Origin: Abditibacterium sp.
GTDB taxonomy: Bacteria; Armatimonadota; Abditibacteriia; Abditibacteriales; Abditibacteriaceae
Direction: 5' to 3'
DNA length: 64,000 bases
Assembly: GCA_965199495.1 (NCBI GenBank)
Contig: CBDASK010000003.1
Coordinates: 3,904,001-3,968,000 of the forward strand
The notes beneath the pieces are model-generated. The model was not told where the DNA came from and did not search any database. It saw only the letters and a program-made list of their open reading frames with translations. This document shows positions 28,991-45,986 of this stretch, piece after piece; positions within the stretch are counted from its first letter, which is position 1, and every line of letters begins with the position of its first letter. Made by a program: the position numbers and the translations under genes.

Positions 28991-31900
28991 ATGTCGCAAT
29001 CCACCACTTTGCAAACGCCCGATGCCGACTTGCACATTAGAACCATTGATGGCGAGCCGACCACAGATGCCGAGATTTTGCCGCTGCAAAATGGTAAATT
29101 TCCCATTATCGGGTTGGGCGGTTCGGCGGGCGCTATCGAGCCGCTGCAAACCTTTTTTAGCAATATGCCGCCCAATCCCGGCATGGCGTTCGTGGTGATT
29201 ATGCACCTCTCGCCCGATTACGAAAGCAATCTCGATTCGATTTTGGCCAAGGTCACCAAAATGCCAGTGATTCAGGTCAACCAAAACCAGAAAATCGAAG
29301 CCAATCACGTTTACGTGATTCCGCCGACGCATTTGCTTTCGATGGAAGATACCCACATCGAGTTGGCGCAGTTGCAACGCGAAAACGGCAAGCGCGTCGC
29401 GGTTGACTTGTTCTTTCGCGCTCTGGCCGAATCGCAGGAAGCGCGCGCGATTTGTATCGTGTTATCGGGCACCGATTCCGATGGCTCGATTGGACTCAAG
29501 CGCGTCAAAGAGCGCGGCGGACTGACCATCGCGCAGGAACCCGACGAAGCGCAATACGACGAAATGCCGCGCAACGCCATCGAAACCGGCATGGTGGATT
29601 GGATTTTGCCGGTCGCGCAAATGCCCGCGCGTCTGCTCAAAATGTTGAGCAAAGAACCCTCGCTTCGGTTGCCGTCGGTGCATCCGCCGACCCAAGAAAG
29701 CGGAGGCGCCGACGCCGAAACCGCGTTGCGGCAAATTCTCGAATTTCTCGAAGCCAGCACCGGCCACAATTTTATTCATTACAAACGCGCCACGATTTTG
29801 CGGCGCCTCGCGCGCCGTTTGCAGGTCAACGGCTTGGAAGATTTGCCGTCGTATCTGGATTATATGCGCACCAACGCGGGCGAAAGCGTGGCGTTGTTGC
29901 AGGATTTGCTGATTAGCGTCACCAACTTTTTCCGCGATAAAACCGCGTTCGAGGCGCTCGAAATGATGTTGCCCTCGCTGTTGCGCGGCAAAAACGAGAA
30001 CGAGCAAATTCGGGTGTGGGTGTCCGGCTGCGCGACCGGCGAAGAAGCCTATTCGCTCGCGATGATTTTGGCCGAATACGTCGAGAATCACGCGCCCACG
30101 CTCAAAGTGCAGGTGTTTGCCACCGACATAGACACTGGCGCCATCGCCTTTGCGCGCGAGGGTTTGTATCCGACTTCGATTGTCGCCGACGTTTCGCCCG
30201 AACGATTGCGCCGCTTTTTCGTGCCCGAACAGGGCCGCTATCGCATTCGCAAAGACCTGCGCGAAACCGTGTTGTTCGCCGCGCACAACCTGCTGCGCGA
30301 CCCGCCGTTTTCGACGCTCGACTTGATTTCGTGCCGCAACCTGCTGATTTATTTCGGCAGCGAAGCGCAGGAACGCGTCTTCGATACTTTTCATTTCGCG
30401 CTGCGGCCCGGCGGCCATTTGATGTTGGGTTCGAGCGAAGCCGTCGGCGCTTCGCCGCTTTTTAGTCCCTTAGACAAACGCAACCGCATTTTCGAGCGCC
30501 GCGAAATGCCGCGCCCCGCGCTTCCGCTGCAAACTTTGCAAGTGCCAGCGTTGCCACGTCGCCGCAGCACGGCGATTTTGCCCGCGACTTTGCTGCCGCC
30601 CGCGACGCTTGGCGCCACGCCCGGCGACGCCGTGGCTGCACGCGCCGAGGTGCAGGAAGAACGCGGATTTTCTAATTTCGGCGAGCTGCATCTGCAACTT
30701 CTGGAAGAATACGCGCCGCCTTCGATTTTGGTCAACGAAGATTACGACATCGTTCATCTGTCCGACGGCGCCGGGCGATTTTTGCAGTGGGGCGGCGGCG
30801 AAGTCTCGATTAATCTGCTCAAAGTCGCGCCGCCCGAACTGCGTTTGGAACTGCAAACCGCGCTGTTTCAGGCGCTGCAAAGCGGCGAGCGCGTCGAAGT
30901 TCCGCAGTTGCCGGTGCGCACCGATGGCCAACTGCGTTCGGTTCGCCTGATGGTGCGCCCGCTCATGCGCGAGGGCGCGGGCCAGAGTTTTCTGCTGGTG
31001 ATTTTCGAGTTGCAAAGCGAAACGCCTCAACTCGCGCCCATCGCCGATGAGCCTGTCGCGCGCCGCCTCGAAACCGAGTTGCAGCACGTTCGCACCCAAC
31101 TCAAAGCGACTTCGCGGCAATACGAAGTTTCGACCGAAGAACTCAAAGCCTCCAACGAAGAGTTGCAGGCGATGAACGAAGAGTTGCGCAGCGCCACCGA
31201 AGAACTCGAAACCGGCAGGGAAGAGTTGCAATCGGTCAACGAAGAATTGATTACCGTCAACGCCGAGCTAAAACACAAAGTCGAGGAAGTCAGTCTGGCC
31301 AACAGCAACCTCAACAACTTGATGGCTTCGACCGAAATCGCCACGATTTTTCTGGATCGCGTGGGCCGCATCCGGCGCTACACGCCGCGCGCCATCGAAC
31401 TGTTTCACCTGATTCCGACCGACGTTGGCCGACCTCTGGCCGATTTGCGCCACAAATTTCGCTACGAAGATTGGGCCAGAGACGCGCAGAAAACCTTGGC
31501 CGATCTGTCGGTTATCGAACACGAAGTGCGCACGCAAGACGGCCAATGGTTTTTGTCGCGGATGCTGCCGTATCGCACCGTCGAAGACCACATTGATGGT
31601 GTGGTATTAACTTTCGTGGACATCACCGCGCGCAAGAACGCCGAGGAAGCCACGCGCTCCAGCGAAGAACGTTTTCGCCTGCTGGTCGGGGGCGTGCAGG
31701 ATTACGCGATTTTCCTGTTCGACGAAAACGGCACCATCACCAGTTGGAATTCGGGCGTCGAGCGCGTGTTGGGCTACCGACAATCGCAGTGGATCGGGCG
31801 CAACTGGAACATTTTGTTTCCGCCCGACGAGCGGTATAAATGCGCCGAAATTATGGAGCGGGCGCGCAATAACAACGGCGCGGTCAGCGAACGCTGGGAA

Positions 31901-33205
31901 TTGCGCGCCGACGGCTCGCAGTTTTGGGCGAGCAACGTCACCAACGCGCTTTTCGACGCCAACGACAATTTGCGCGGTTACGTGAAAATCGTGCGCGACA
32001 TGAGCGAGAGCCGCGAGGCCGAAGACCGTTTGCGCGCGGCCAACGAAGAATTAGAAAGCCGCGTCGCGCAGCGCACGGCGGAACTCGAAGAAATCAACGA
32101 CGCGCTCAACGCCGAAAACCTGGAGCGCCGGCAGGCCGAAGACGGACGTTTGGTTTTAGTGCGCCAGTTGGAAGGCGAATTAGATCGCCTGCAGCAGTTG
32201 TTGCAGGGCATTCCGGCGGGCGTGATTATCGCGCACTCCGACCGGCGCCCGCTTTTCGTCAACACGCGCGCGCGCCTGACTTTAGGCATGGCCGATGGCG
32301 TCGAATCCGACGAGGCCGTGCGGACGTGGCTGTATGAAGACGGCGGCCCGCTGGAGCGCGCGCTGGAAGGCGAAAACGTGACCAACGAAGAGCGCGAGTT
32401 CGCGCGCGACGACGAAAATCCGCTTTCGCTGAGCGTGAGCGCCGAGCCGATTCCCGACGCTTTGACGCCCGGCGAATCGCCGATTGCGGCGGCGATTGTG
32501 GCGTTTCAGGACACCACCGAGCGCAAGCGCGCCGAAGTCGCGCGCCAGCAACTGTTGCAGCGTTTGGTCGGCGCGCAGGAAGAAGAGCGCACGCGCATTT
32601 CGCGCGAACTGCACGACCAAATGGGCCAATCGCTGACCGCGCTTTTGATGGCGATTAACTCGATTATCGAGGGCAGTCCCAACGCATCTAACGTCGAAGA
32701 ACGGTTGGACAAACTGAAAGTTTCGGTCGAAGAATTAATGGATCAGGCGCATCTGTTGGCGTGGGAACTGCGTCCGCCCTCACTCGATAATCTGGGACTG
32801 CGCGCGGCGTTAGAGCAGTATTTGAACGAGTGGAGCCGCTCGACTGGCGTGCGCGCCGACTTCGCCAGTCGCGGTTTGAACAATCTGGAACGTTTGGATA
32901 AAGTCGTCGAAACCACGCTTTATCGCGTGGTGCAGGAGGCGCTCAACAACGTCAATCGCCACGCCGATGCCGAAATGGTGAGCGTTTTGTTGGAGCGCAT
33001 GGACGGCAACGTGACCGCGATTGTCGAAGACAACGGGCGCGGCTTCGATGTCGAAGCGATAATTTCGGGCAACTCGGAGCGTTTGGGTTTGGTCGGAATG
33101 CGCGAGCGCATCGAACTTGTCGGCGGCAGTTTGGCCATCGAATCGAGCGAAGGGCAGGGCACGACGGTTTATGCGCGCGTCGCGACGGGCAAGCGCGTGG
33201 AGTAG
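28991..33205 (+). CDS. CheB methylesterase-CheR methyltransferase-coiled coil-PAS-histidine kinase (HisKA_3) fusion
   Basis: GGSAGA, HLSP, DGSIGL (CheB). VTNFFRD, GCATGEEAYS, ISCRNLLIY (CheR). SNEELQ repeats, PAS domains, ISRELHDQMGQ, QEALNN, DNGRGF, GLVGMRER. Confidence 0.93.
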   Translation: MSQSTTLQTPDADLHIRTIDGEPTTDAEILPLQNGKFPIIGLGGSAGAIEPLQTFFSNMPPNPGMAFVVIMHLSPDYESNLDSILAKVTKMPVIQVNQNQKIEANHVYVIPPTHLLSMEDTHIELAQLQRENGKRVAVDLFFRALAESQEARAICIVLSGTDSDGSIGLKRVKERGGLTIAQEPDEAQYDEMPRNAIETGMVDWILPVAQMPARLLKMLSKEPSLRLPSVHPPTQESGGADAETALRQILEFLEASTGHNFIHYKRATILRRLARRLQVNGLEDLPSYLDYMRTNAGESVALLQDLLISVTNFFRDKTAFEALEMMLPSLLRGKNENEQIRVWVSGCATGEEAYSLAMILAEYVENHAPTLKVQVFATDIDTGAIAFAREGLYPTSIVADVSPERLRRFFVPEQGRYRIRKDLRETVLFAAHNLLRDPPFSTLDLISCRNLLIYFGSEAQERVFDTFHFALRPGGHLMLGSSEAVGASPLFSPLDKRNRIFERREMPRPALPLQTLQVPALPRRRSTAILPATLLPPATLGATPGDAVAARAEVQEERGFSNFGELHLQLLEEYAPPSILVNEDYDIVHLSDGAGRFLQWGGGEVSINLLKVAPPELRLELQTALFQALQSGERVEVPQLPVRTDGQLRSVRLMVRPLMREGAGQSFLLVIFELQSETPQLAPIADEPVARRLETELQHVRTQLKATSRQYEVSTEELKASNEELQAMNEELRSATEELETGREELQSVNEELITVNAELKHKVEEVSLANSNLNNLMASTEIATIFLDRVGRIRRYTPRAIELFHLIPTDVGRPLADLRHKFRYEDWARDAQKTLADLSVIEHEVRTQDGQWFLSRMLPYRTVEDHIDGVVLTFVDITARKNAEEATRSSEERFRLLVGGVQDYAIFLFDENGTITSWNSGVERVLGYRQSQWIGRNWNILFPPDERYKCAEIMERARNNNGAVSERWELRADGSQFWASNVTNALFDANDNLRGYVKIVRDMSESREAEDRLRAANEELESRVAQRTAELEEINDALNAENLERRQAEDGRLVLVRQLEGELDRLQQLLQGIPAGVIIAHSDRRPLFVNTRARLTLGMADGVESDEAVRTWLYEDGGPLERALEGENVTNEEREFARDDENPLSLSVSAEPIPDALTPGESPIAAAIVAFQDTTERKRAEVARQQLLQRLVGAQEEERTRISRELHDQMGQSLTALLMAINSIIEGSPNASNVEERLDKLKVSVEELMDQAHLLAWELRPPSLDNLGLRAALEQYLNEWSRSTGVRADFASRGLNNLERLDKVVETTLYRVVQEALNNVNRHADAEMVSVLLERMDGNVTAIVEDNGRGFDVEAIISGNSERLGLVGMRERIELVGGSLAIESSEGQGTTVYARVATGKRVE

Positions 33206-34798: not shown

Positions 34799-37435
34799 AT
34801 TTCCGAACTGACTTGCCGCGACATCCACGCGCACGCTTGCCCGCAAATTATCAAACCCGAATATGCGTTTTGCCCAATTTGCGGGCGCCCGACGGTTGGC
34901 GTGAGCGCCTCGCCATCGGCGGCGCAGGTCGTTTTGGCGCCCGGCCAGAACACGTTGAGTTTGCCGCTTCGCGTCGTTGGTCAGGCCAAAGTCGTGGTGC
35001 GCGCGCGCGTGGCTGCTGCCGAACCGGTGCGCTTTAAAACGCGCGAAGGCATTGACACAATATTCGATGGCAGCGCGCCCAAACCCGAAAACGCCGGGCC
35101 GCTCACCATCACTTTGCCGATGGTGTGGACAGACACGCAGAGGCCCTCGCTCGAAGTGCCCCGGCAAGTGCCGCTCCATTTGGAAACGCTCGACGGGCCG
35201 CCGCGCGATATTTTTAATGTCGAACCGGCCAACCGCGCGCGCGCTTGGGCGCCGCTGGTTTTGCAGGTCAGCTCGCCGCGCCCGGCGAAGTTGGAAATCG
35301 CGACCGAAATTTTATTGCTGAGCGGGCGCGAGCGAGAGCGCGAATTGGAATTGATCAACTCTGGCGATTCACCGCTGCAACTGCGTCCGCCTGTTGTGCC
35401 GGTTGGTTTTGAAATTAGCGCGCGCGATTCGGGCAACAGCGGCGAATGGACGCTATTGCCGGGCACGCGCAAAGTTTGGAATGTGCGCGCTTTAAGTCCC
35501 GCGCCCGCAGGAGCCACGGCGATGGCATTGCATAATCTGGTGGGCGTCGAGTTGGGAAAAATCACGATGCTCGTGCCCGCGCGTAGCGCCTTGGCGACGC
35601 GCACACGATATGTCATCGGCGTGGATTTCGGCACGTCGGGCACTTCGATTTATCAACGCGATGGCCGCGATGACAATCAGAAAGCGGTCGCATTATTAGA
35701 CGTTAAAGCGCGCGCGGGCGTGGACGATCCCAAACGATTTCCGACGGTGCTTTATGTCTCGTTCAAAAACGGGTTGGAAAGCGGCTTTTATATCGGTTAC
35801 GAAGCCTTGCAAAAACAACAGCAAAAAGAGGGCGATTCGCCCGGTTTGTTTGTGCGCGAAATCAAAAGTTTGCTGCGCACCGACGAAGAACCGTTCGCGT
35901 TGCAGTTCGGCCCCAACTATCGCGTGGATTTGCTGCTGCGGCGGTTTTTGCAAAAATTGCGCGAGCAAATCATCGAGCCGCAACTCGAAGGCGGCAGAGC
36001 GGCGAGCGTGGCGTGGAATTTTTCGCTGCCAGTTTTGGATTCGCACGCGGGCGGTTCACGCCAGTTGTTCGAGCGCCAGAAAAGCCGTTTGGAAAACGCG
36101 ATTCGCGACGCGGGCACCATCAAAACCGGCGACGAATTAGAATTTTTCACCGAGCCGTTTTGCGCGGCGGTTTATCTGTTATTGGGACACGGCAATTATC
36201 GCTATCCGCGCAATCGCGGGCCGCGCGATGGCGATTGGGCGTGCATTTTCGATTCGGGCGGCGGCACGACCGATGTCGTTTTGGGACGATTGCGCTTGGA
36301 AAATGGTCAGATGCGTTTCGAGGAAACGCGCGCGCTGGGCGGCTATCAAAAAGCGGGCGAAGAGAAAGTCACGACGTTTGGCGGCGAATTATTGACGCGC
36401 AAAACCGCGATTTATCTATCGGTCTGGCAACGGCCCGGCGACTCTCAGAATCGCGAAGATCGCTCTTATTCATTGGTCTTACACGAAGTCGCGCGGCTCA
36501 GTCGCCGAGGCGCGTTGGGCAATCGCGACGAGAGAACTGTCGCCGACGATTTGCGCACAGTCGCGGCCCTCGCGCCCGATAACGAAGAGATTTTCATGCA
36601 GCCCAAAGTCGTGCTGGACAAGAAAATCAAAACCAATCCGTGGGTCGAGTTTTACGATTTGTGGGAAGATGTCGAACGGTTCAAACGCCAGTTGGCTTCG
36701 GTCGCGTTGCCGGGCGCGACGGTGAATTTGCCGTTTCCCTCGCGCGAAAGCGATGACAAAACGTTTCCGGTTGCCATCGTGCGCCGCGAGTTCGATGAAG
36801 TCGTGGTTAATCGCCGCTTGGACGCGATGAGCGCGGCAATGCAAACGCAGATTTTTGGCGGCGAAGATGTCGCCGCGCCCGCCGAAGTGCGCTGGGTTTT
36901 TGGCGTGGGCGGCAATTGTCGCGTGCGGCGCGTGCAAGATTGGCTGGGCGAGTTTTTCCCCGACCGCAACAGCGTGCAAGATTTGACCGTGGTGAGCGGC
37001 GGTTTAGCCGACGAATCCGACCGCATGCTCGCCGTGGCTGGTGGCGCGGTGTGGGCGAATAAAGCCTCGCGCGACAATACTCTGCCCTATGCGATTCGCG
37101 TCGAAGGCGCGGGCGAAACGATTTTCGAGGCGCAGGCTTATGTGCCGCTGGGCGACATCGAGCCAATCGAGAAAATTTATCAGATGATTTACGGCCACCA
37201 AATCGAGTTGCGTTGTATCTTGAGCGGCGACATCGGCGGGCCAAATGGATCCGTTCCGTTCGAGGGCGCTGTCGGGCGCTTTACCCTCGCCAACCGCGAA
37301 ATGGACGCCAAAGCGCCCGCGCATGAAACGCCGATGCGCAACATCAGCGTGCGCATCGGTTTAGAAGGGCGCACGCTACGCGCGTGGAGCGATGAAGCGG
37401 GCGAAACGCGGGAAGTTTTCGCGTTTAGTTTTTGA
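34799..37435 (+). CDS. Hsp70/actin-fold ATPase with N-terminal Zn ribbon and Ig-like region; no canonical DnaK substrate-binding domain
   Basis: IGVDFGTSGT, FTEPFCAA, IFDSGGGTTDV, FGG, ERFKRQL, GVGGNCRV, AVAGGA. The frame is open upstream of GTG 34901 to 34742 and encodes C-x7-C...FCPICG, with AAGGAG 10 nt before ATT 34799. Confidence 0.8.
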   Translation: MSELTCRDIHAHACPQIIKPEYAFCPICGRPTVGVSASPSAAQVVLAPGQNTLSLPLRVVGQAKVVVRARVAAAEPVRFKTREGIDTIFDGSAPKPENAGPLTITLPMVWTDTQRPSLEVPRQVPLHLETLDGPPRDIFNVEPANRARAWAPLVLQVSSPRPAKLEIATEILLLSGRERERELELINSGDSPLQLRPPVVPVGFEISARDSGNSGEWTLLPGTRKVWNVRALSPAPAGATAMALHNLVGVELGKITMLVPARSALATRTRYVIGVDFGTSGTSIYQRDGRDDNQKAVALLDVKARAGVDDPKRFPTVLYVSFKNGLESGFYIGYEALQKQQQKEGDSPGLFVREIKSLLRTDEEPFALQFGPNYRVDLLLRRFLQKLREQIIEPQLEGGRAASVAWNFSLPVLDSHAGGSRQLFERQKSRLENAIRDAGTIKTGDELEFFTEPFCAAVYLLLGHGNYRYPRNRGPRDGDWACIFDSGGGTTDVVLGRLRLENGQMRFEETRALGGYQKAGEEKVTTFGGELLTRKTAIYLSVWQRPGDSQNREDRSYSLVLHEVARLSRRGALGNRDERTVADDLRTVAALAPDNEEIFMQPKVVLDKKIKTNPWVEFYDLWEDVERFKRQLASVALPGATVNLPFPSRESDDKTFPVAIVRREFDEVVVNRRLDAMSAAMQTQIFGGEDVAAPAEVRWVFGVGGNCRVRRVQDWLGEFFPDRNSVQDLTVVSGGLADESDRMLAVAGGAVWANKASRDNTLPYAIRVEGAGETIFEAQAYVPLGDIEPIEKIYQMIYGHQIELRCILSGDIGGPNGSVPFEGAVGRFTLANREMDAKAPAHETPMRNISVRIGLEGRTLRAWSDEAGETREVFAFSF

Positions 37436-37460
37436 GATTAATAAGGCTGTTTCTACAAAC

Positions 37461-37639
37461 AGAAGTGAAGCAATTGGCCCACATTGTCATTCTGAGCGCA
37501 GTGAGGCACGAACGAAGTCGAAGAATCCATAGGTCGCGCGTTGACTTGGCCTCGATTGTGTCCAGAGTTGTGGATTCTTCGACTTCGTTCGTGCCTCACT
37601 GCGCTCAGAATGACAATGTGGGCCAATTGCTTCACTTCT
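37461..37639. repeat. Long inverted repeat, TGTCATTCTGAGCG...CGAAGAATC family
   Basis: Perfect 69-bp arms. The two ORF translations on opposite strands are nearly identical for this reason. Confidence 0.92.
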
Positions 37640-37652
37640 AAAAACCAAAATT

Positions 37653-38663
37653 ATGCTGCCATCCACTCGCAAAGACCTCGAAGAACGCATCGAATCCGTG
37701 CAAAGCGGGCAAACCCAACTCGAAGCAAAATTGGACGCGTTGCCCGCGCGATTGACGGCGGCGATGCAAAACGAAACCGCGCACATCGGCCAATTATTGG
37801 AGGCACAGCAGAAGGGCGTGACTCAACAATTATCCGAAACCAAAGGCGAACTTTTGCAAGCGAATCAATCGGATAAAACCGAAATTTTGCAGGCGCTGGC
37901 CGACGTGGCTCTGCTTCAGCAAAAGCAATTCGCCGCGTTGCAGGCTGAGTTCGCTCAACAATTGGACAACGTAAATTCTCGCATTGAAAACTTCGAGATC
38001 GCGTGGCGCCAAAATATAAGCGCGCCGATTGATGATACGTCGGAGGAAGCGGTGCGCGCGTGGAGCGAGCAAATCGGCGCGCGCCTCAAGGCGTTCGGTG
38101 CAGCCACCGGCATGGCGCGCGCTTTCGCGTTACAATTGTTTCAAGAGTTGAAAGAACTCAAAACGCTCGATGCGCAGTTAAGCGAAAATCAACTGGATTT
38201 CGCCGATAATTTGGACGATTTGCAACGCGTCTTATTCGTCGAACGGGCGTTGCCGTGGACGTGTCTGACGCCGCATAACTCGACCGATGTGCAGCGGCGC
38301 GAACTGCGAATTTTGGAAACCGCCATCGCGCAATTGCGCTCCTATGAACAGGAACGCTTGCTGCAAATAGCGGGCATTCGCCCGCTCGAAATCGTGCCCG
38401 GTGGCACGCCGTTCGATGCGAGCGTTCATGAAAGCAACGAATTTCTCGAAGTTCCCACGCCCGACGAGAGCAAGCATAATTTGATTTTGTCGGTCGAAAA
38501 ACCGGGGTTTCAGCAGGTTTCGGATGCGAGCGCGCCGCAGTTATTGCGCCCGGCGCGCGTGCGGCGCTATGTGTTTCACCGGTCGGATAACACAGCGCCG
38601 GTTGTGGCGGAAATTGATGAAACGATGGACGAGGCGATGCCGCGCGTTTCGGGGCAGTTATGA
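37653..38663 (+). CDS. Coiled-coil protein with C-terminal GrpE-like domain
   Basis: Gln/Glu/Leu coiled coil, then GTPFDASVHES...ILSVEKPGF...LLRPARV, which matches the GrpE FDP--HEA / KGY / LRPA-V pattern. Confidence 0.72.
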   Translation: MLPSTRKDLEERIESVQSGQTQLEAKLDALPARLTAAMQNETAHIGQLLEAQQKGVTQQLSETKGELLQANQSDKTEILQALADVALLQQKQFAALQAEFAQQLDNVNSRIENFEIAWRQNISAPIDDTSEEAVRAWSEQIGARLKAFGAATGMARAFALQLFQELKELKTLDAQLSENQLDFADNLDDLQRVLFVERALPWTCLTPHNSTDVQRRELRILETAIAQLRSYEQERLLQIAGIRPLEIVPGGTPFDASVHESNEFLEVPTPDESKHNLILSVEKPGFQQVSDASAPQLLRPARVRRYVFHRSDNTAPVVAEIDETMDEAMPRVSGQL

Positions 38664-38689
38664 AATTAATCGCTTTGTATAAATCGCGA

Positions 38690-38777
38690 ACCAATTCAAG
38701 CGGGGCTGGCGCACCCTTCCAATCGGAATTTCTTCGCACCAAGATTGGAAGGGGGCGCCAGCCCCGCTTGAATTGGT
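38690..38777. repeat. Palindromic repeat (CTTCCAATC/GATTGGAAG family), copy 2
   Basis: Arms ACCAATTCAAGCGGGGCTGGCGCACCCTTCCAATC / GATTGGAAGGGGGCGCCAGCCCCGCTTGAATTGGT. Confidence 0.85.
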
Positions 38778-38826
38778 CTCGCCTCAAAACTGAGTTGTAT
38801 CAAACCTTTTGTCACATTAAATTTCC

Positions 38827-40395
38827 ATGATATGCAGTCAATGTAAACAGCGCAATTCGCCGCCCAACGCGCGGTTTTGCGTGGATTGTGGCTACGCTTT
38901 GTTGCAGCCGTGCCCTTATGCGTGCGGCCACGCGGTGTTGCCGGTGCGCGCCGATAATCCCGTCGCGCAGTGTCCGAGTTGCGCGCGATTCACGGTTTAT
39001 TGCCCGTCGTGTTTTCGGCTGGGCACGCTCGGCGAGCGCGCTTGCCCGACGCGGCGTTGCGCCATCGCGGGCGTGCAGATGCGCGAGCCGTTTGGGCATC
39101 ATAGTGGGCGCGCGGGTGGGGCGCCACTCGAATTGCGCTCACCGTGGCAAGGTGCGCGGCCCCATCTGCTCAAGCCCGACGTGCAGGTCAAAGCGACCGG
39201 GCAACGTTGCGGCGGCGTGGCTTCGCGCTATGGCCAGTTCGTGTGGTGGAAAGAGGACAAACTGTTTCTGTGGCCCGCGCCGACTCCGGGTAATTATTGG
39301 TCGTCGGAGAAACTGCGCACCGCGAGCGCGATTTATCCCCTATTTCGCGGCGGCATTTTTCCGCATCGTGAGGCGCTCTTGTTGGCGCATGGCAACGCTT
39401 ATTTGTTGGGCGATAAAACCGCGCTGCGCGTTCCGCTCGGCGCAACCGATGAATCCGCCCAAACGCTGGCGATGAGCGCGCGCGCCGAATTTAATTCGAC
39501 AAACGATGAATTGGACTGGGAAAACGTGAGTCGGGCGCCAGCAGCCACGGCGAACGATTGGCAAGCGCATCAAATCGAATGGCTGGCGCAAAATGAGACT
39601 TCGACGCGTTGGTTGGGATTGGGCGAAGTCGGCGGCCAACTCATCGGTGTAAGGGCGCGCGCTTCGGGCGCGTTGTTCGAGGGCGAGCGCTGGCAGTTGC
39701 CCGCCGAAATCACGCTCAACGACTGGCAAGATTTATTGGTGTGGAACGACGCGCCCGTTTTATTGTGCGAGCGCGCGTTGTGGTGCGAAACTGAGCGCGG
39801 CTGGGAAAAAATCTTCGAGTTGCCGAATTCGCCAGCCGAATTCTCATTGCGCGGCGCGATGGTCGCGGGCACGGATTTATGGTTTTGGGGCAGCGAAACC
39901 GGGCGTTTATGGGTCGAACGCCGCAGCGCCGATGGTTTGAGCGCGCGCGCTTCGATGCGTTTTGAGGCCGACGACCGCATTGATTCGATGCCGGTGGCTG
40001 ATGGCACGCGCATCACGTTTTTCGTGGCCGGATCGCGCAACGGCGTGGCGACGCTCGATGTGTTGCGCCCGCTCGACGATTCGCAATTCCAACAAATTCC
40101 CGCCGCCAGCATCGTGTTGTGGACGGGCGCAGCGCGGTTCGAGAAGACAGGCCAAAGTTGGCTCCTTTACGCGGTTGACGATGGCGAATTGATCAAATTG
40201 CAGATGATCGAGCAATCGCCCGCACCTTCACCGCCGCTCGAACTAACGCGATTCGCGCCGTTTCGCGACGCTTACGGTTCGTCCAAAGGCGCGACGTTGG
40301 CCGCGACCATCAGCGGCGATTGTTTGATGGTGGCGCTCTTTGGCACGATTCGCGGCGAGCCCATCGTGCGTTTATTGGGATTTTCGTGGGGATAG
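38827..40395 (+). CDS. Multi zinc-ribbon protein with Trp-rich, beta-rich (propeller-like) C-terminal region
   Basis: CSQC, FCVDCG, CPYAC, CPSC, CPSC and CPTRRC in the first 80 aa. Propeller assignment is an inference. Confidence 0.65.
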   Translation: MICSQCKQRNSPPNARFCVDCGYALLQPCPYACGHAVLPVRADNPVAQCPSCARFTVYCPSCFRLGTLGERACPTRRCAIAGVQMREPFGHHSGRAGGAPLELRSPWQGARPHLLKPDVQVKATGQRCGGVASRYGQFVWWKEDKLFLWPAPTPGNYWSSEKLRTASAIYPLFRGGIFPHREALLLAHGNAYLLGDKTALRVPLGATDESAQTLAMSARAEFNSTNDELDWENVSRAPAATANDWQAHQIEWLAQNETSTRWLGLGEVGGQLIGVRARASGALFEGERWQLPAEITLNDWQDLLVWNDAPVLLCERALWCETERGWEKIFELPNSPAEFSLRGAMVAGTDLWFWGSETGRLWVERRSADGLSARASMRFEADDRIDSMPVADGTRITFFVAGSRNGVATLDVLRPLDDSQFQQIPAASIVLWTGAARFEKTGQSWLLYAVDDGELIKLQMIEQSPAPSPPLELTRFAPFRDAYGSSKGATLAATISGDCLMVALFGTIRGEPIVRLLGFSWG

Positions 40396-40439
40396 TTGCG
40401 CGGATTTTGTGTGGATTATATGCGTAAGTTCTATTGGGC

Positions 40440-40464
40440 GCCTCACTGCGCTCAGAATGACAAT
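40440..40464. repeat. Solo half-copy of the TGTCATTCTGAGCG repeat
   Basis: GCCTCACTGCGCTCAGAATGACAAT is identical to part of the right arm of 37461-37639. Confidence 0.8.
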
Positions 40465-40585
40465 AGGAGCATTTTTCGGGCATGAAATTTCTCTGTGACT
40501 ACCACGACAATCGCGCGGATTTCGTCACCTCCGCCGCTCCGTTACGATAAAATAGAAAGCAGACTGGCTCAGGCCAAATTCACTT

Positions 40586-41899
40586 ATGACGAGGTTTTCC
40601 CGCTTGACGCCCCGAATTTCTTATCTGACGATTTTTCTGCTTTTATTGGTCACTTTGTGCGCGCCGCGCGTTCAAGCGCAACCCGCGCCCACCGCCAACG
40701 CGCCAATTTTGGCGGGCAGCAGCGATAGCGGCGAGTTAGAACAACGTCTGCTGTTTCGCGCGCGCAAAGCCCTGCGCGAAAGCGGCGACGCCAACGCCGA
40801 TAATCTGGGCGCGCCCAACGCCTACAACTGGATTATCTTGATGCAGGTGGCGCGCTACTCCGATTCCAACGTGCGCCTGACCAACATGAATCGCGGCGTG
40901 CAGCGCTTTCTCGAAGCGCTCGTGCAATCGCGTCAGGCGCAAACCGGCGGGCAAGTCAAAGATACCGTCAGCATTTTGCCCCACCATTTTTCGCTGTTGG
41001 GCGACCGTCAAGTTACGCCGCTCGCGTCTTATTTGAGCGATGTTTCCACTCTCAAACGCCGCGTGCCCGATTCGCCGCAAAACGATAATTATCAAGGCCA
41101 AAGCTGGCGCGACGGCCACGATTGGCGTAATGCCATGCAGCAAACTTTGGAATGGATGCCAACGGTGGATTTGGAGCCGCGCCACACGGTCGTCATCGTG
41201 CTGGATTGGAACGGTCTGGCGCAAGCGCCGATAACCCTCGCCAACGGCACCAAACCGGCGCAACCCGCGACCGATGCCGATTTGGTGCTACCGAGTAACG
41301 CCAAATTGTATCAGGCGTTTTCCGACGCGATGATCCAATCGGGTTTCGACCCGAAGAAGAATTTGGAAAACGTGCAGGTCGGCACGCTCGAATACAATTT
41401 GGCCGTGTTCGCGCCCAAAGATTTGGAGCCGCTGAACAACGCCGCCAAAGCGCCCGCGACAACAGCAGCCACGCCGACGCCCAAGCCCGCGAGTGGCGGC
41501 AGCGGCGGTTGGATTTTGCTGCCAATTTTGGCGGGATTGGGCGCCGTCGCGTTTTTCCTGATGCGTCCGGTCACTTTCCGTCTGGACGAATCTGAGACGC
41601 GTTCGGTGAGCGCATTGCCCGCCAAAACGCTGCCGATTCTGGGCGCGCGCACCGACGCCAAAGGCGCGCACTTTCGCGTGCCCAATGCCAACATTGATAC
41701 CGACCGGCCACTCGCGGTTTTCTCGACCGATTTCTCAAAGAAACTCAGTGTGCAAAACGGCGCGCTGAACGCGCGTAGCGTCGAGGGTTTCGACCCAACG
41801 CCCAACGGTTTGAAACTGCGCGGGCAAAAGGGCGAACTGGAATTAGTGGATTCCGCCACTAACCGCGTGGTAGGCACAATCAGCGTGCGCAAATTGTAG
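40586..41899 (+). CDS. Type I membrane protein: signal peptide, degenerate vWA-like exported domain, Pro/Thr linker, TM helix, cytoplasmic beta domain
   Basis: Signal ends VQA. Strand pattern WIILMQVARYS / DTVSILP / VVIVLDWNG fits vWA topology without an intact DxSxS. TM WILLPILAGLGAVAFFL. Confidence 0.5.
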   Translation: MTRFSRLTPRISYLTIFLLLLVTLCAPRVQAQPAPTANAPILAGSSDSGELEQRLLFRARKALRESGDANADNLGAPNAYNWIILMQVARYSDSNVRLTNMNRGVQRFLEALVQSRQAQTGGQVKDTVSILPHHFSLLGDRQVTPLASYLSDVSTLKRRVPDSPQNDNYQGQSWRDGHDWRNAMQQTLEWMPTVDLEPRHTVVIVLDWNGLAQAPITLANGTKPAQPATDADLVLPSNAKLYQAFSDAMIQSGFDPKKNLENVQVGTLEYNLAVFAPKDLEPLNNAAKAPATTAATPTPKPASGGSGGWILLPILAGLGAVAFFLMRPVTFRLDESETRSVSALPAKTLPILGARTDAKGAHFRVPNANIDTDRPLAVFSTDFSKKLSVQNGALNARSVEGFDPTPNGLKLRGQKGELELVDSATNRVVGTISVRKL

Positions 41900-41919
41900 T
41901 TCGTATTTTTCTCACGATT

Positions 41920-42426
41920 ATGTTTCTCCAACTTTCTCTGCGCCGCGCGCCGATTCTCGTCTGGCTTTTGACCTGCGTTTTGTCGCTTACGCTCACGTTT
42001 TGCGCGTTCGCGCAAGATGATGTCGCTCCGACTCCGACGATGACGCCCAATAACACGACGACCACAATTACCATTTCGCAAAGCGCGCCGCGCGTGGGCA
42101 CGCCTTCGTTTTTGGGCGCCGTTGATACCACTCTCCAAACGTGGAGTCGTTATTTTCGCGGTTACAGCCTTTATCTTCTCATCGCGATTGCCCTCGCGGC
42201 GGCGTATTTGACGGGGTTAATCATCTATCAAATTGCGTTTGGTCTGGGCAGTTTCGCGCCTAAAGCCGGATTGATTTCGGCGTGGTTTAGCGCGATCATT
42301 CTGCTATTTTTTGGGCTGATGATGTTGCCGCAAGGCTGGCCGTGGTGGTCGCCTTACGCGCTGATTTTCTTCGGGCTGGCGGCGACGGCGCTGGTTCTTT
42401 CTTCGTTTAGCAAAAAGGCGGTTTAG
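41920..42426 (+). CDS. Small membrane protein (signal peptide plus 3 TM helices)
   Basis: Signal ends AFA, Thr-rich linker, three hydrophobic segments. Confidence 0.7.
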   Translation: MFLQLSLRRAPILVWLLTCVLSLTLTFCAFAQDDVAPTPTMTPNNTTTTITISQSAPRVGTPSFLGAVDTTLQTWSRYFRGYSLYLLIAIALAAAYLTGLIIYQIAFGLGSFAPKAGLISAWFSAIILLFFGLMMLPQGWPWWSPYALIFFGLAATALVLSSFSKKAV

Positions 42427-42471
42427 ATTTGGATGCGATTTTATACCGCATTCTCAATTACCCAAAATCTC

Positions 42472-45400
42472 ATGGCACAACGCGCACTTATCATCGGTTT
42501 AGGCTCCACGGGCTACGACGTTTGCAATTACATCGCTCAACGCATTCAGTGGGAGCAGGGCGGCATGGAGCGCGTGCCGTGGCTCAAATTTCTCATCCTC
42601 GAAACCGAGCCGCCCGCTGGCATCGGCGAACTCGAACGCAACTACATTCACCTCACCATCGGCGGGCAAGGTTACGAAGGTCTCATCAATAATCCGGGGC
42701 GCTACAAAAGCCAGCTCGACTTGGAAAGTTGGTGGGACAAAGATGCGCTGTTGCAACTCGGCGATAAAGCCTTGACCAAAGGCGCGGGCAATATCCGCAT
42801 GGTCGGGCGTTTGGCGTTTCTGTTTCCGAGTCTGAGTTTGCAAATTCGCAACGCCATTCAAACGCGTTTGGATGGGTTGCAATCGCTGACGCCGCAACAG
42901 GCGCAAGCCGCACGTGGGCCGTTGCCCGACGGCTCCAATCCGGCGATTAATCTGGGTGACGAAACCATCGTTTATGTCGTCGGCACTTTGTGTGGCGGCA
43001 CCTGTTCGGGCGCCTTTATTGATCTGGGTTATCTGCTGCATTACGAGTTCGCTTCGACGGGTTACAAAATCCAACGGCGCGGCCTGTTCTCGATTCCCAA
43101 CATGGCCTACGAGGCGCTCTCCAATCAGCGTCGCCGCGCGAATGCTTTTGGCGCACTCAAAGAATTGAATCACTTCATGAGCGGCCACGAATACAGCGTG
43201 CAATATCCGTTTCACGCGGGGCGCCCCGAAAACCCGACGCGCTATTCGCCCTATGATACGACGTATTTGAGCCAGCCATCGGGCGGCGACGAAAACTCGT
43301 TCGAGAAAGTCAAAATCACCACGGCGCAGTTTCTTCATAACGATATTTTTAATTCGGTCGCCGCGCAAATCGGCGCCAAAACCGTGGACAGCGCGGCCTC
43401 AATGTTCGGCGGCGATAAGAACGGTTCGCCGGTCACGTTTTATTCGTTTGGCACCAGCGCCGTCGAAATTCCTGGTTATCTCATCGCTCAGGGTTGCTGC
43501 TACAAATTGGGCGTCGAGGCGTTGGACGAATTCGTCGCGCCGCGTCCCAACGCGCTGCAAGAGGCCGACGCGTTTCGCATCAAAACGCTGGGCGTTTCGA
43601 GCGAGATTATCGCTGGAAAATTGCTGCGCGATCCCGACGGCGACCCGACCGGCGAGGCGGGCGTGAACATTCCGTCGCGCTTAAAAGACCAAGTCGCGGG
43701 CGCCGTGGCTGGTGCGGCCAATGCGGGTGCGGGCGCCGCCGACGATTTGGCCGCCGCCGAAGAGCGCGTGGGCGCCGCATTTATGCCGCGCCGCGACGAT
43801 TCGCCCGCCGTCTCGGATAGCGCCGCCACCAACAATTTGCCGCCGCACATCATTCCGCGCCGTATCGAAGCCAACTCGCAGATTTTGCGCGGCAGCTATC
43901 AACGAGACTTGGATAGAGAAATCCAAATCGCTTTGCGCGATCCGGCGCGCGGGCCGGTCTGGTGCGAAACCGTTTTGGACGAAACCCAGAAGTATCTGGA
44001 AAACCGGCTCCAAGAATTGGGTTCTGGCACGCACGCCGACGATTTGGAAAAGGCCAACAAAAACACGAAGAACGCGTTAAACGCCGCGCGTTCGCGCGTC
44101 GAGGCGTGCGCGACCGATCCGTTTGTCGCGCTTTATTTCGGGCGCAAACGCGCCATCGAACGCGAATTGATGGCCTACGCCGAAGCGGCGAATTCGGCTT
44201 ATCGGCGCCGTTTGGAAGCGATGCTTTTGGCGCCCGAAAAAATGTTGTGCGAGGCGCTGCTGCCGCAAGTGAAAACGATGCGCGCCCAGATCACCGGCGC
44301 CAATGCCAACGATGACACCAGCGTGTTGTCGCAGGCGCGACAGTTGCGCGCGATTCTGGCCGACAAACTCGCCAAAGTCAGCGAAGCCACGCCGGTGATC
44401 AACGGGCGTTCGTTGTTCGAGCCGGGCCGCACCATTGACGGCAAATACGACGCGTTTTGGAGCGGGCGCGGCCCCGACAAACGCCACGAGGCGCGCTTCG
44501 GTTTCGTGAGCAATTGGAAAAAATTGCCGTCCGCCGATGCGACTTCGGGCCAGTTGACGCAACTCGGCTCTTATTTTACCGACGGCACGATGACCGTCGC
44601 GAGCGGCCAGAACCTGACGCGCCAACTGCGCGAAACCGCCGAAACTTTGGCGCGCAGTTATCGCCCGTTGTTTGCGCCATTGCTACGCGAATCCATTCTC
44701 AATCGCCCCGAAATCGGCGATCCGGTTTTGCTGCGCGATGTGCGCGACAAAAGCGCCGTGATGATCGGTTTGAATCGTCACAGCGGTTTGACGCAACTGA
44801 CCGGCAACAACGAAATCGATCTGGTCTTTTTCGAGGGCGCCAAAAACGCGTCGAACCAGCCCGATTCCAAGGCCAACGAATTGTATCAGGCGATGATGGC
44901 GCTCAAAACCAATGGTATCACCATGCGTTTCGAGGAAAGTCCGTCGCCCCAAGAACTGTTGTGCGTGCGCGTTTTGGGCGGGTTTTCGCTCGCGATGATC
45001 AACGGTTTTCAGCCGCCCGAACTGGAAGGCAACAATTTTCGCCAGTCGTTTGAAGTCGAGAATTCCGAGAAATTCAACGTCTATTCGCGCGTCGGCATCA
45101 AGTGGCAACCGTTTGACGGCGACCGCGACCAACGCGTCGAGTGGCGTCAGGGCTTGATTTTGACCGGGCTTTGTTTATCGCGCACCGGCAATATGGCCGA
45201 TTGTCTGGTCTTGCGCACTAATCAGGGTTATATGTATCGTCCGCCGCGTCCGCTTGGGCCGGGCCGCGACAAAGTTTTGCTGCCCTTCGATTTGCGCGAA
45301 GCCGCCAATGCTCTGCGCGAACATCCCGATTTTATGGCCTGTCTCGAAGACGACATCAAGCGTTTGCGCGTCGCCAAATCGGTGGACGAACTGGCGGTTT

Positions 45401-45837
45401 GTCTGGAATGGCTCTATGATAACAGCGAACAATTGGGCCTCAAACGCACCGAAAGCCGCTTTTCGCTGCGCTATGAAGACACCGAAGCCGAGGGCGATAC
45501 CAAATCGCAAATCGCGCAAAGCACAACCGAAAACGCCGCGCTGTTGCCAGTTTCGAGTGCCAAAGCGTTCGATTTAATCAAGAATTACTGGCGCAACGAC
45601 GCCGCGATTATCAATCGATTGGACGCGCGTTACAACCAAAATCATCTGCCCGCCGAGCAGCCAATTATTGCGCCATTCCCCGGCCAGATTCCGACGCCGG
45701 TTGTCGAATCGCCGGTTATTGAAGCTGTCGCATCGAACGTGGCGCCGTTTCCGGGGCAAACTCAAACAATAGCCACGCCGCCTGTGGCTGCTGTGCCACT
45801 CGCGCAAAACGCGCCAGATGATTTGGATTTTACTTAA
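42472..45837 (+). CDS. Tubulin-like (Tubulin_2 / FtsZ-like) protein with long helical C-terminus
   Basis: IIGLGSTG, GAGNIRMVGRLAF, VGTLCGGTCSGAFID, ANAFGALKELNHF, PYD--YL. Confidence 0.85.
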   Translation: MAQRALIIGLGSTGYDVCNYIAQRIQWEQGGMERVPWLKFLILETEPPAGIGELERNYIHLTIGGQGYEGLINNPGRYKSQLDLESWWDKDALLQLGDKALTKGAGNIRMVGRLAFLFPSLSLQIRNAIQTRLDGLQSLTPQQAQAARGPLPDGSNPAINLGDETIVYVVGTLCGGTCSGAFIDLGYLLHYEFASTGYKIQRRGLFSIPNMAYEALSNQRRRANAFGALKELNHFMSGHEYSVQYPFHAGRPENPTRYSPYDTTYLSQPSGGDENSFEKVKITTAQFLHNDIFNSVAAQIGAKTVDSAASMFGGDKNGSPVTFYSFGTSAVEIPGYLIAQGCCYKLGVEALDEFVAPRPNALQEADAFRIKTLGVSSEIIAGKLLRDPDGDPTGEAGVNIPSRLKDQVAGAVAGAANAGAGAADDLAAAEERVGAAFMPRRDDSPAVSDSAATNNLPPHIIPRRIEANSQILRGSYQRDLDREIQIALRDPARGPVWCETVLDETQKYLENRLQELGSGTHADDLEKANKNTKNALNAARSRVEACATDPFVALYFGRKRAIERELMAYAEAANSAYRRRLEAMLLAPEKMLCEALLPQVKTMRAQITGANANDDTSVLSQARQLRAILADKLAKVSEATPVINGRSLFEPGRTIDGKYDAFWSGRGPDKRHEARFGFVSNWKKLPSADATSGQLTQLGSYFTDGTMTVASGQNLTRQLRETAETLARSYRPLFAPLLRESILNRPEIGDPVLLRDVRDKSAVMIGLNRHSGLTQLTGNNEIDLVFFEGAKNASNQPDSKANELYQAMMALKTNGITMRFEESPSPQELLCVRVLGGFSLAMINGFQPPELEGNNFRQSFEVENSEKFNVYSRVGIKWQPFDGDRDQRVEWRQGLILTGLCLSRTGNMADCLVLRTNQGYMYRPPRPLGPGRDKVLLPFDLREAANALREHPDFMACLEDDIKRLRVAKSVDELAVCLEWLYDNSEQLGLKRTESRFSLRYEDTEAEGDTKSQIAQSTTENAALLPVSSAKAFDLIKNYWRNDAAIINRLDARYNQNHLPAEQPIIAPFPGQIPTPVVESPVIEAVASNVAPFPGQTQTIATPPVAAVPLAQNAPDDLDFT

Positions 45838-45842
45838 ACGAT

Positions 45843-45986
45843 GTGCGGGATAAAGATTAGCCACAAAGAGCGCAAAGGGTCACAAAGAAGCGGAAAGAAA
45901 TTAATTTGGAAAGACAAAATTATGAAATTTATTTCTGCTACTTTGTGACCCTTTGCGCTCTTTGTGGCTAATCTTTATCCCCGCAC
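45843..45986. repeat. Long inverted repeat with periodic CACAAAG/CGCAAAG units, copy 2
   Basis: GATAAAGATTAGCCACAAAGAGCGCAAAGGGTCACAAAG is mirrored. The right arm overlaps the pheT stop codon. Confidence 0.85.

Follow-up and report, generated by a model that had tools for sequence, protein, structure and literature searches.

An FtsZl1-type tubulin operon of Abditibacterium with its own Hsp70-like and GrpE-like genes

Tubulin-like proteins of the FtsZl1 type have been known since 2010, when Makarova and Koonin (PMC2875224) proposed that FtsZl1/vWA/OmpA operons, among them those of the Deinococcus type (DR_0540-DR_0534 and Deide_2p00760-00810), function in membrane remodelling. Here we analysed a cluster of six genes (g1 to g6) in a stretch of 64,000 nucleotides of Abditibacterium sp. 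(contig CBDASK010000003.1 of assembly GCA_965199495.1, positions 3,904,001 to 3,968,000), called the window in the following, in which an FtsZl1-type tubulin is tied to a dedicated Hsp70/GrpE module and, in relatives, to a Zorya-like stator. Supplement 5 of the 2010 paper lists Deide_2p00780 as the FtsZl1 of an operon coding for proteins of 421, 108, 1070, 411 (MotA) and 200 (OmpA) amino acid residues; its table lists a DnaK neighbour once and a GrpE neighbour once, not in the same operon, and the vWA protein adjacent to the tubulin mostly has an intact MIDAS motif (DxSxS). The accessible text of PMC9871819 equates Tubulin_2 with the FtsZ-like proteins of the FtsZl1 type and adds nothing further.

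Related tubulin/vWA and Hsp70/GrpE neighbourhoods were classed as predicted conflict systems by Kaur et al. 2020 (PMC7159879). As outlined there, the tubulin theme and the Hsp70/GrpE theme do not overlap, are found in firmicutes and actinobacteria and need a DO-GTPase and GAP1. For Zorya, the account of Hu et al. (PMC11946911) describes how the stator aspartate and tail relay an envelope perturbation to cytosolic partners. In the literature searched, with most subscription journals outside reach, we found no description of or experiment on the combination seen in the window, and no published function or phenotype for FtsZl1 tubulins.

Relation to FtsZl1 operons, co-inheritance and the stator of relatives

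The six genes are co-oriented open reading frames on the + strand at 34799-45837 of the window:
g1, 34799..37435, + strand: Zn ribbon, two Ig-like beta domains, Hsp70 ATPase domain and SBD-beta-like domain; no helical lid, short interdomain linker
g2, 37653..38663, + strand: coiled coil and GrpE-like head; predicted nucleotide-exchange factor
g3, 38827..40395, + strand: 12-Cys Zn-ribbon array (residues 3-78) and beta-propeller; predicted adaptor
g4, 40586..41899, + strand: signal peptide, probable degenerate vWA-like exported domain, Pro/Thr linker, transmembrane (TM) helix 305-323 and cytoplasmic beta domain of about 110 residues, by hydropathy
g5, 41920..42426, + strand: signal-like segment and three TM helices, by hydropathy; optional in relatives
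g6, 42472..45837, + strand: FtsZl1/Tubulin_2 GTPase domain, long helical region, C-terminal domain and Pro/Ala-rich tail ending in DLDFT

They are flanked upstream by a glucoamylase-like gene (Pfam Glycoamylase) and downstream by convergent pheT/pheS-like genes (names read from the sequence), and each is single-copy in the source genome (G000; 4.8 Mb, 95% complete). The layout agrees with the first-pass annotation, which had described six co-oriented genes between unrelated neighbours.

The best plasmid match of g6 was Deide_2p00780 itself (E 1e-38 with tblastn and 1.7e-224 with the profile), a Nostoc plasmid member also being matched, and g4 is a homologue of Deide_2p00760 (E 1.6e-66). When Deinococcota rows were left out of the profiles, four genes of the Deide operon were still recovered, at E-values from 1e-35 to 1e-224. 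The g4-g6 core and its MotA/OmpA link were therefore already tabulated in 2010, where the pair does not figure as a tailed Zorya-like stator. An OmpA/MotB neighbour is absent from G000 and present in relatives. The earlier statement that the combination is not a characterised system thus holds for the front module of Hsp70, GrpE-like and propeller genes, but not for the g4-g5-g6 core, which is the tabulated Deinococcus operon. We conclude that g1-g6 is a member of the FtsZl1 operons, in which the front module and the dispensable stator are new.

The distribution of the genes was followed with profiles. The tubulin profile matched 144 of the 401 genomes of the phylum Armatimonadota, including 24 of 24 in one family, and the g3 profile matched 35 of the 401, 34 of these being tubulin-positive as well. 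Within the family of the source genome, tubulin, g1 and g3 were each present in the identical four of 27 genomes; in the genus, tubulin was found in three of 13. The order Hsp70, GrpE-like, g3, g4, (small TM gene), tubulin recurs in records of the Fimbriimonadales and Chthonomonadales. Since the profiles had been trained on many of these loci, metagenome loci were also inspected (the best 80 of 141). Among the 40 closest, g4 was upstream of the tubulin in 33, and six of the seven misses had less than 820 bp upstream; g3 was present in 14 and all five genes in seven. Four of the seven complete loci were distinct (L198, L200/L201, L209, L233), their tubulins sharing less than 70% identity with every training row. 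The recurrence of the order in these held-out contigs indicates more than a chance cluster and, together with the shared presence in the same four genomes, bears out the earlier view of a dedicated, co-inherited module.

Selection was measured against G134, a relative that also lacks the stator. The ratios of non-synonymous to synonymous changes (dN/dS) for g1 to g6 were 0.136, 0.207, 0.189, 0.102, 0.229 and 0.075 (pheT, 0.073), at dS 0.35-0.52 and with no stops in the six genes; g2, g3 and g5 evolve about three times faster than pheT. The six-gene form thus consists of intact genes that are kept by purifying selection.

The cassette occupies different chromosomal neighbourhoods in G000/G134, in G072 and in G237: it shares a downstream neighbour with G134 only, and the sequences that flank it in G072 and G237 lie at other places in G000. 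Its partners vary between loci, stator, kinase and trypsin genes being swapped freely. Deinococcus loci with long flanks have g4, tubulin and stator without g1-g3, and Deinococcus loci carry kinase neighbours.

In relatives, the cassette is often joined by a 3-TM MotA/ExbB protein of about 580 residues with a long helical tail and a MotB/OmpA protein of about 230 residues, which match the ZorA and ZorB models of PADLOC (to 1e-13 and 6e-20). The TM aspartate is invariant in 22 of 22 rows, and a G-x-x-G-T motif is present in at least 90% of 30 rows. Strong ZorA-like matches (E up to 1.6e-30; next match 1e-19) were found in 23 of 401 genomes, about two thirds of which are training rows; all 23 are tubulin-positive, and they include 16 of the 35 genomes with g3. 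The 118 other genomes matched at 1e-8 have mostly short, ordinary ExbB/TolQ-type frames. The stator was present in 12 of 26 non-redundant full loci and absent from 11 with at least 1.7 kb downstream, three being cut, and it was found in 44 of the 80 metagenome loci. In the motorless loci, the downstream genes have housekeeping functions or are unassigned.

G000 has no orthologue of either stator gene in genome-wide profile and six-frame searches, which gave only ordinary ExbB/TolQ/MotA-type and OmpA-domain proteins; the six-frame search is part of this result since the profile search missed a DO-GTPase2 gene that hmmscan found. In a 38-row tubulin tree, motor-bearing family members enclose the motorless pair G000 and G134 (starred support), and motorless rows stand on at least five branches; the tree has four long branches, and some of its deep nodes are unsettled. 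The tubulin tree follows kinship within the family. On the simplest reading of this tree, the stator would have been lost in the G000 lineage and on at least four other branches; if so, the six genes work without it.

Several other arrangements were seen. A ZorAB-like pair lies on the strand opposite to the cluster in L073, L152, L200, L201 and L209, and upstream on the same strand in L038 and L233. In L246-L276 the tubulins are distant (22-30% identity) and have ZorA-like and ZorB-like genes behind them; by size and position, these genes may be the 'B7' and COG1360 genes of the 2010 table. Outside the clade, tubulin and Hsp70 genes are arranged otherwise in L079, L082, L083, L121, L135, L145, L257 and L263, some with trypsin-like genes between the two, some with GrpE or MotA. 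Firmicute Hsp70-like loci (L155-L184) were dropped as no other component was matched; in L156 and L170, Hsp70-fold proteins stand beside PP2C, TPR and VgrG-like genes.

The six proteins and the gaps between their genes

The g6 protein has an N-terminal divergent FtsZ-like GTPase domain (Pfam Tubulin_2, E 3.8e-46) in which T1 (GLGSTG), T3 (GAGNIRMVGR) and T4 (GTLCGGTCSG) are conserved in 44 rows. Homologues start at MAQRA, which fits the 1121 residues assigned before, and the length of about 1100 residues is that of FtsZl1; Pfam FtsZ_C and Tubulin_C were not matched. The nearest named relative (94% identical) is an Abditibacteriales record. The terminal Zn ribbon of nearly all relatives is replaced in G000, G134 and G072 by a Pro/Ala-rich tail with a D-F-T terminus, a layout that presumably recalls the linker and docking peptide of FtsZ. 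A link between the terminal ribbon and the Hsp70 module was rejected as a pattern artefact, the ribbon being present in nearly all rows. In the motor-bearing relative G072 (C1:2558216-2561437, L085) the tubulin gene has one in-frame TAG at codon 903, which is either a break, an assembly error or readthrough. A plasmid search with g6 gave nine plasmid records, all large replicons.

The Hsp70 fold assigned to g1 was confirmed. Pfam HSP70 matched at E 4.4e-5, the AlphaFold2 (AF2) model (pLDDT 77) had DnaK/BiP as best Foldseek matches (E 1e-18, about 650 columns), and hhalign against residues 1-481 of the genome's own DnaK gave a probability of 99.75, the alignment ending where the lid starts. An ATPase domain of actin fold, with the catalytic motifs of Hsp70, precedes the SBD-beta-like domain. 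The phosphate-1, catalytic Glu, phosphate-2 and adenosine motifs, with D276/G278/T279, E452, D485-T490, K629 and G704/G705, do not vary in any of 23 rows (a more canonical Hsp70 being among them), and ATPase activity is therefore predicted. The Ig-like assignment follows from the all-beta N-terminus of the model and a Pfam ASH match in one relative. Canonical Hsp70 proteins have a hydrophobic interdomain linker, a helical lid and a J-protein partner; in g1 the linker is polar and about 10 residues shorter than in the genome's own DnaK. A helical lid is absent, and Pfam scans of the g1-g6 proteins and of the relatives' loci gave no DnaJ match.

No ATG, GTG or TTG precedes the conserved Zn ribbon of g1, and the first standard start (34901) would remove Cys residues that at least 90% of 23 rows share. 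A non-AUG start is therefore needed, which is probably ATT 34799, placed by the first-pass annotation and plausible 10 nt behind AAGGAG, or CTG 34808, where homologues start. In G134, g1 has an ATG at the matching place, one base behind a Shine-Dalgarno-like motif.

The g2 profile found PDB GrpE (E 4e-5), and hhalign against the genome's own GrpE gave a probability of 97 (E 1e-10), with a long helix and beta-head motif. Pfam GrpE was matched in 8 of 15 aligned members, but not by the window protein itself, so that its GrpE likeness, already noted, is borne out through relatives and profiles; it is a predicted nucleotide-exchange factor. With the six proteins, PADLOC and NCBIfam gave weak coiled-coil matches only, and those of g2 to ZorA/JetC (E 0.01-0.1) were dismissed as coiled-coil noise. 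G000 has canonical DnaK and GrpE elsewhere, and two more short DnaK paralogues lie at G000:C3:768494-770071 and 1495002-1497525, one of them beside a GrpE-like gene.

For g3, the six Cys pairs described earlier were found as 12 conserved Cys (Pfam DZR, 0.0017), and a beta-propeller was found in addition. Its AF2 model (pLDDT 66) is all-beta and has largely propellers as best Foldseek matches (DDB1, BamB, Fbw7; E about 1e-6), which leads us to predict a propeller adaptor; an ESM Atlas search gave only unnamed clusters below 0.9. PDB sequence searches with g3 and g4 gave nothing significant. The g4 protein matched vWA clusters of the ESM Atlas at 0.92-0.93, and its profile is linked to the Pfam VWA_2 family at 4e-8. 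Weaker Atlas matches (0.85-0.87) suggest a vWA-FHA-kinase architecture; Pfam did not support FHA in the tail of g4 or its 34 members, and fn3 was matched once, in one of 34 relatives. Hydropathy agrees with the three TM helices proposed for g5 and adds the signal-like segment. Of 62 rows, 24 have a small multi-TM gene at this position, three family-level relatives alone being linked to g5 by sequence.

The gaps g1/g2, g2/g3 and g3/g4 are 217, 163 and 190 bp, long-looking for an operon; they are 58, 41 and 76 bp in G134 and 7, 4 and 24 bp in G072. The following features, none with a strand, were found:
37436..37652, gap g1/g2: genome-wide palindromic repeat, 151 blastn rows in the genome including itself; outside the system
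38664..38826, gap g2/g3: second genome-wide repeat, 112 blastn rows
45838..45974, gap downstream of g6: repeat-filled; site of the ZorA-like/ZorB-like genes in relatives; no remnant detected

The g3/g4 gap contains a short piece of a genome-wide repeat. Altogether, at least three palindromic repeat families lie in intergenic gaps (37436-37652, 38664-38826, 45838-45974), two with more than 100 blastn rows in the genome, and read depth in the g1-g6 region peaks at the repeat-filled gaps. One DNA read set covers 30 of 30 bins without other letters and may be the source sample. Promoter and terminator scans of the locus were at chance level (4 against 5.3 and 28 against 26.2). Upstream, at 28991-33205, a hybrid of CheB/CheR, PAS and histidine kinase (1404 residues, read from the sequence) is encoded, where G134 has another gene.

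A possible function in envelope surveillance

Our tentative reading, with a probability of roughly 0.45, is that g1-g6 is an FtsZl1-type operon acting as an envelope-surveillance machine in conflict. It is favoured because of the patchy distribution, the relocation of the cassette, the faster evolving adaptors, the Zorya-type stator of relatives and the conflict classing in PMC7159879. A sensor coupled to the tubulin, with defence or membrane remodelling as a possible function, had been proposed by the first-pass annotation; here we infer topology, contacts, polymerisation, trigger and biological role as follows. Jointly with g5, the exported vWA-like domain of g4 would act as a sensor of changes on the outer side of the membrane; g4 and g5 would then trigger GTP-dependent assembly of the g6 tubulin under the membrane, on their cytoplasmic face, and the private Hsp70 g1, the predicted exchange factor g2 and the predicted propeller adaptor g3 would hold or reset this assembly. 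Since the stator is dispensable, g4 is more likely the primary trigger, and the stator of relatives likely supplies a second, cell-wall-anchored input or force. With its short linker, its missing lid and the lack of a J-domain gene close by, g1 likely serves as a specialised assembly factor that Zn ribbons or the propeller direct to its target, and not as a general chaperone.

Several observations weigh against a role in surveillance or conflict. Library scans found no nuclease, toxin or other effector domain in g1-g6 or recurring neighbours, and no copy was found in phage records or viral contigs. The GC content of the genes (0.53-0.62) is like that of the flanks, where most genes are housekeeping. 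Of 102 flank proteins (9 from the window and 93 out of 137 listed, a count without matched control), 11 matched PADLOC at 1e-10, mostly as partial matches to common folds. A clear defence neighbour was seen in G072 only, a type I-B Cas cluster some 3 kb beyond the cassette. Pairs of the MotA/B type also drive machines unrelated to defence. Zorya depends on its motor, yet this system seems to lose it repeatedly. The sensor is concerned as well: the vWA-like assignment of g4 made by the first-pass annotation is backed by the Atlas clusters and the VWA_2 link, but g4 has no MIDAS motif DxSxS, none of 34 members matches Pfam vWA and hhalign to vWA gives 29%, so that the exported domain is only probably vWA-like.

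The main alternative, which we hold to be somewhat less likely, is a membrane-remodelling, vesicle or surface-structure machine with no conflict role, in which Hsp70/GrpE would be assembly chaperones and the stator an optional energiser. The missing effector domain, the housekeeping flanks, the host-like GC and the missing viral copies are consistent with it, as are a tubulin tree that follows kinship within the family and a tubulin family found in 144 of 401 phylum genomes and in all 24 of one family; remodelling is also what PMC2875224 proposes for FtsZl1 operons. Against it stand the presence in only three of 13 genus genomes, the movement of the cassette between neighbourhoods with its stator, kinase and trypsin partners swapped, and the lack of a phenotype in the literature searched.

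Less probable still is an immune variant of the surveillance reading. Here a surface vWA receptor would nucleate a tubulin polymer, and this polymer would act as the effector by walling off or sealing the invasion site; a J-independent Hsp70/GrpE cycle would set threshold and reset. The motor-bearing form would then represent a Zorya-like class so far unrecognised, in which the stator brings in a cytoskeleton and not a nuclease, and the window a natural experiment in which the receptor alone can fire.

We consider it improbable that the locus serves envelope-stress signalling or protein quality control, with Hsp70/GrpE as the output for damaged membrane-associated proteins and the tubulin as scaffold. 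The retained catalytic residues and SBD-beta-like domain of g1 would suit such a role, and so would the vWA-FHA-kinase matches of g4 and the kinase neighbours in Deinococcus. However, g1 is without lid and canonical linker, and the chaperones look like an add-on, because the core of g4, tubulin and stator occurs without Hsp70, GrpE and g3 in Deinococcus and g3 almost never occurs without tubulin. That the six genes are a decaying remnant of the eight-gene system, as the lost stator and tubulin ribbon, the repeats in the gaps, the non-AUG start of g1 and the TAG in the G072 tubulin might suggest, is very improbable and largely refuted by the intact genes and dN/dS of 0.075-0.229 between stator-less G000 and G134; motorless forms on at least five branches also speak against it.

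Taken together, the six genes are inherited together in a conserved order, with recognisable folds, intact nucleotide motifs in g1 and g6, purifying selection and no stator. Three natural versions exist, namely core plus stator in the genetically tractable Deinococcus, six genes in the window and eight genes in other relatives, which together make the function directly testable. If the surveillance reading is true, this would be an instance in bacteria of a eukaryote-like design, with a membrane receptor acting upstream of a tubulin polymer that is under the control of its own lidless Hsp70.

Comparison with known systems

Like the DnaK/GrpE/DnaJ system, the locus has Hsp70 ATPase motifs and an SBD-beta-like domain in g1 and a GrpE head in g2. 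It differs in the N-terminal Zn ribbon and Ig-like domains of g1, the missing lid, the shorter, non-hydrophobic linker and the missing J-domain gene.

With the FtsZl1 operons it shares g4 and g6, homologous to Deide_2p00760 and 00780, the gene order and a small TM gene between the g4-type and g6-type genes; the stator of relatives is homologous to 00790 and 00800. In contrast, the window adds the Zn-ribbon/Ig Hsp70, the GrpE-like gene and the Zn-ribbon propeller in front and has neither the MotA/OmpA pair nor LRV or kinase genes.

The GAP1-N2 DO-GTPase systems have the same parts, if g4 is vWA-like and g6 has a coiled coil: a coiled-coil tubulin, an extracellular vWA protein with TM helices, Hsp70 with GrpE, and Zn ribbons. 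In the window, however, the tubulin and Hsp70/GrpE themes are one operon, and a Pfam scan found no DO-GTPase, GAP1 or FNIII (fn3) gene among g1-g6. A GAP1-N2 and DO-GTPase2 pair is present 3.5 Mb from the cluster (G000:C3:421592-433924, L194), together with a radical-SAM-like gene, a double AAA ATPase, a degenerate Hsp70-like gene and coiled-coil genes. It lies inside an apparent integrative element with ParB-like, DUF932-like and serine recombinase-like genes (by eye), and a ThiF-like/MBL-hydrolase pair follows at 441456-444850.

Zorya, whose anti-phage activity depends on the proton motive force, is approached by the relatives, whose stator has the layout of ZorA (three TM helices and a long helical tail) and ZorB (TM Asp and peptidoglycan-binding domain). 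Here the partners differ, being tubulin and Hsp70, and the stator is dispensable; PADLOC found no ZorC-G genes among g1-g6 and the 102 flank proteins, and ZorA and ZorB are absent from G000. In conclusion, the six-gene locus is not a member of the Zorya or DO-GTPase systems, and in the relatives it probably works partly like Zorya.

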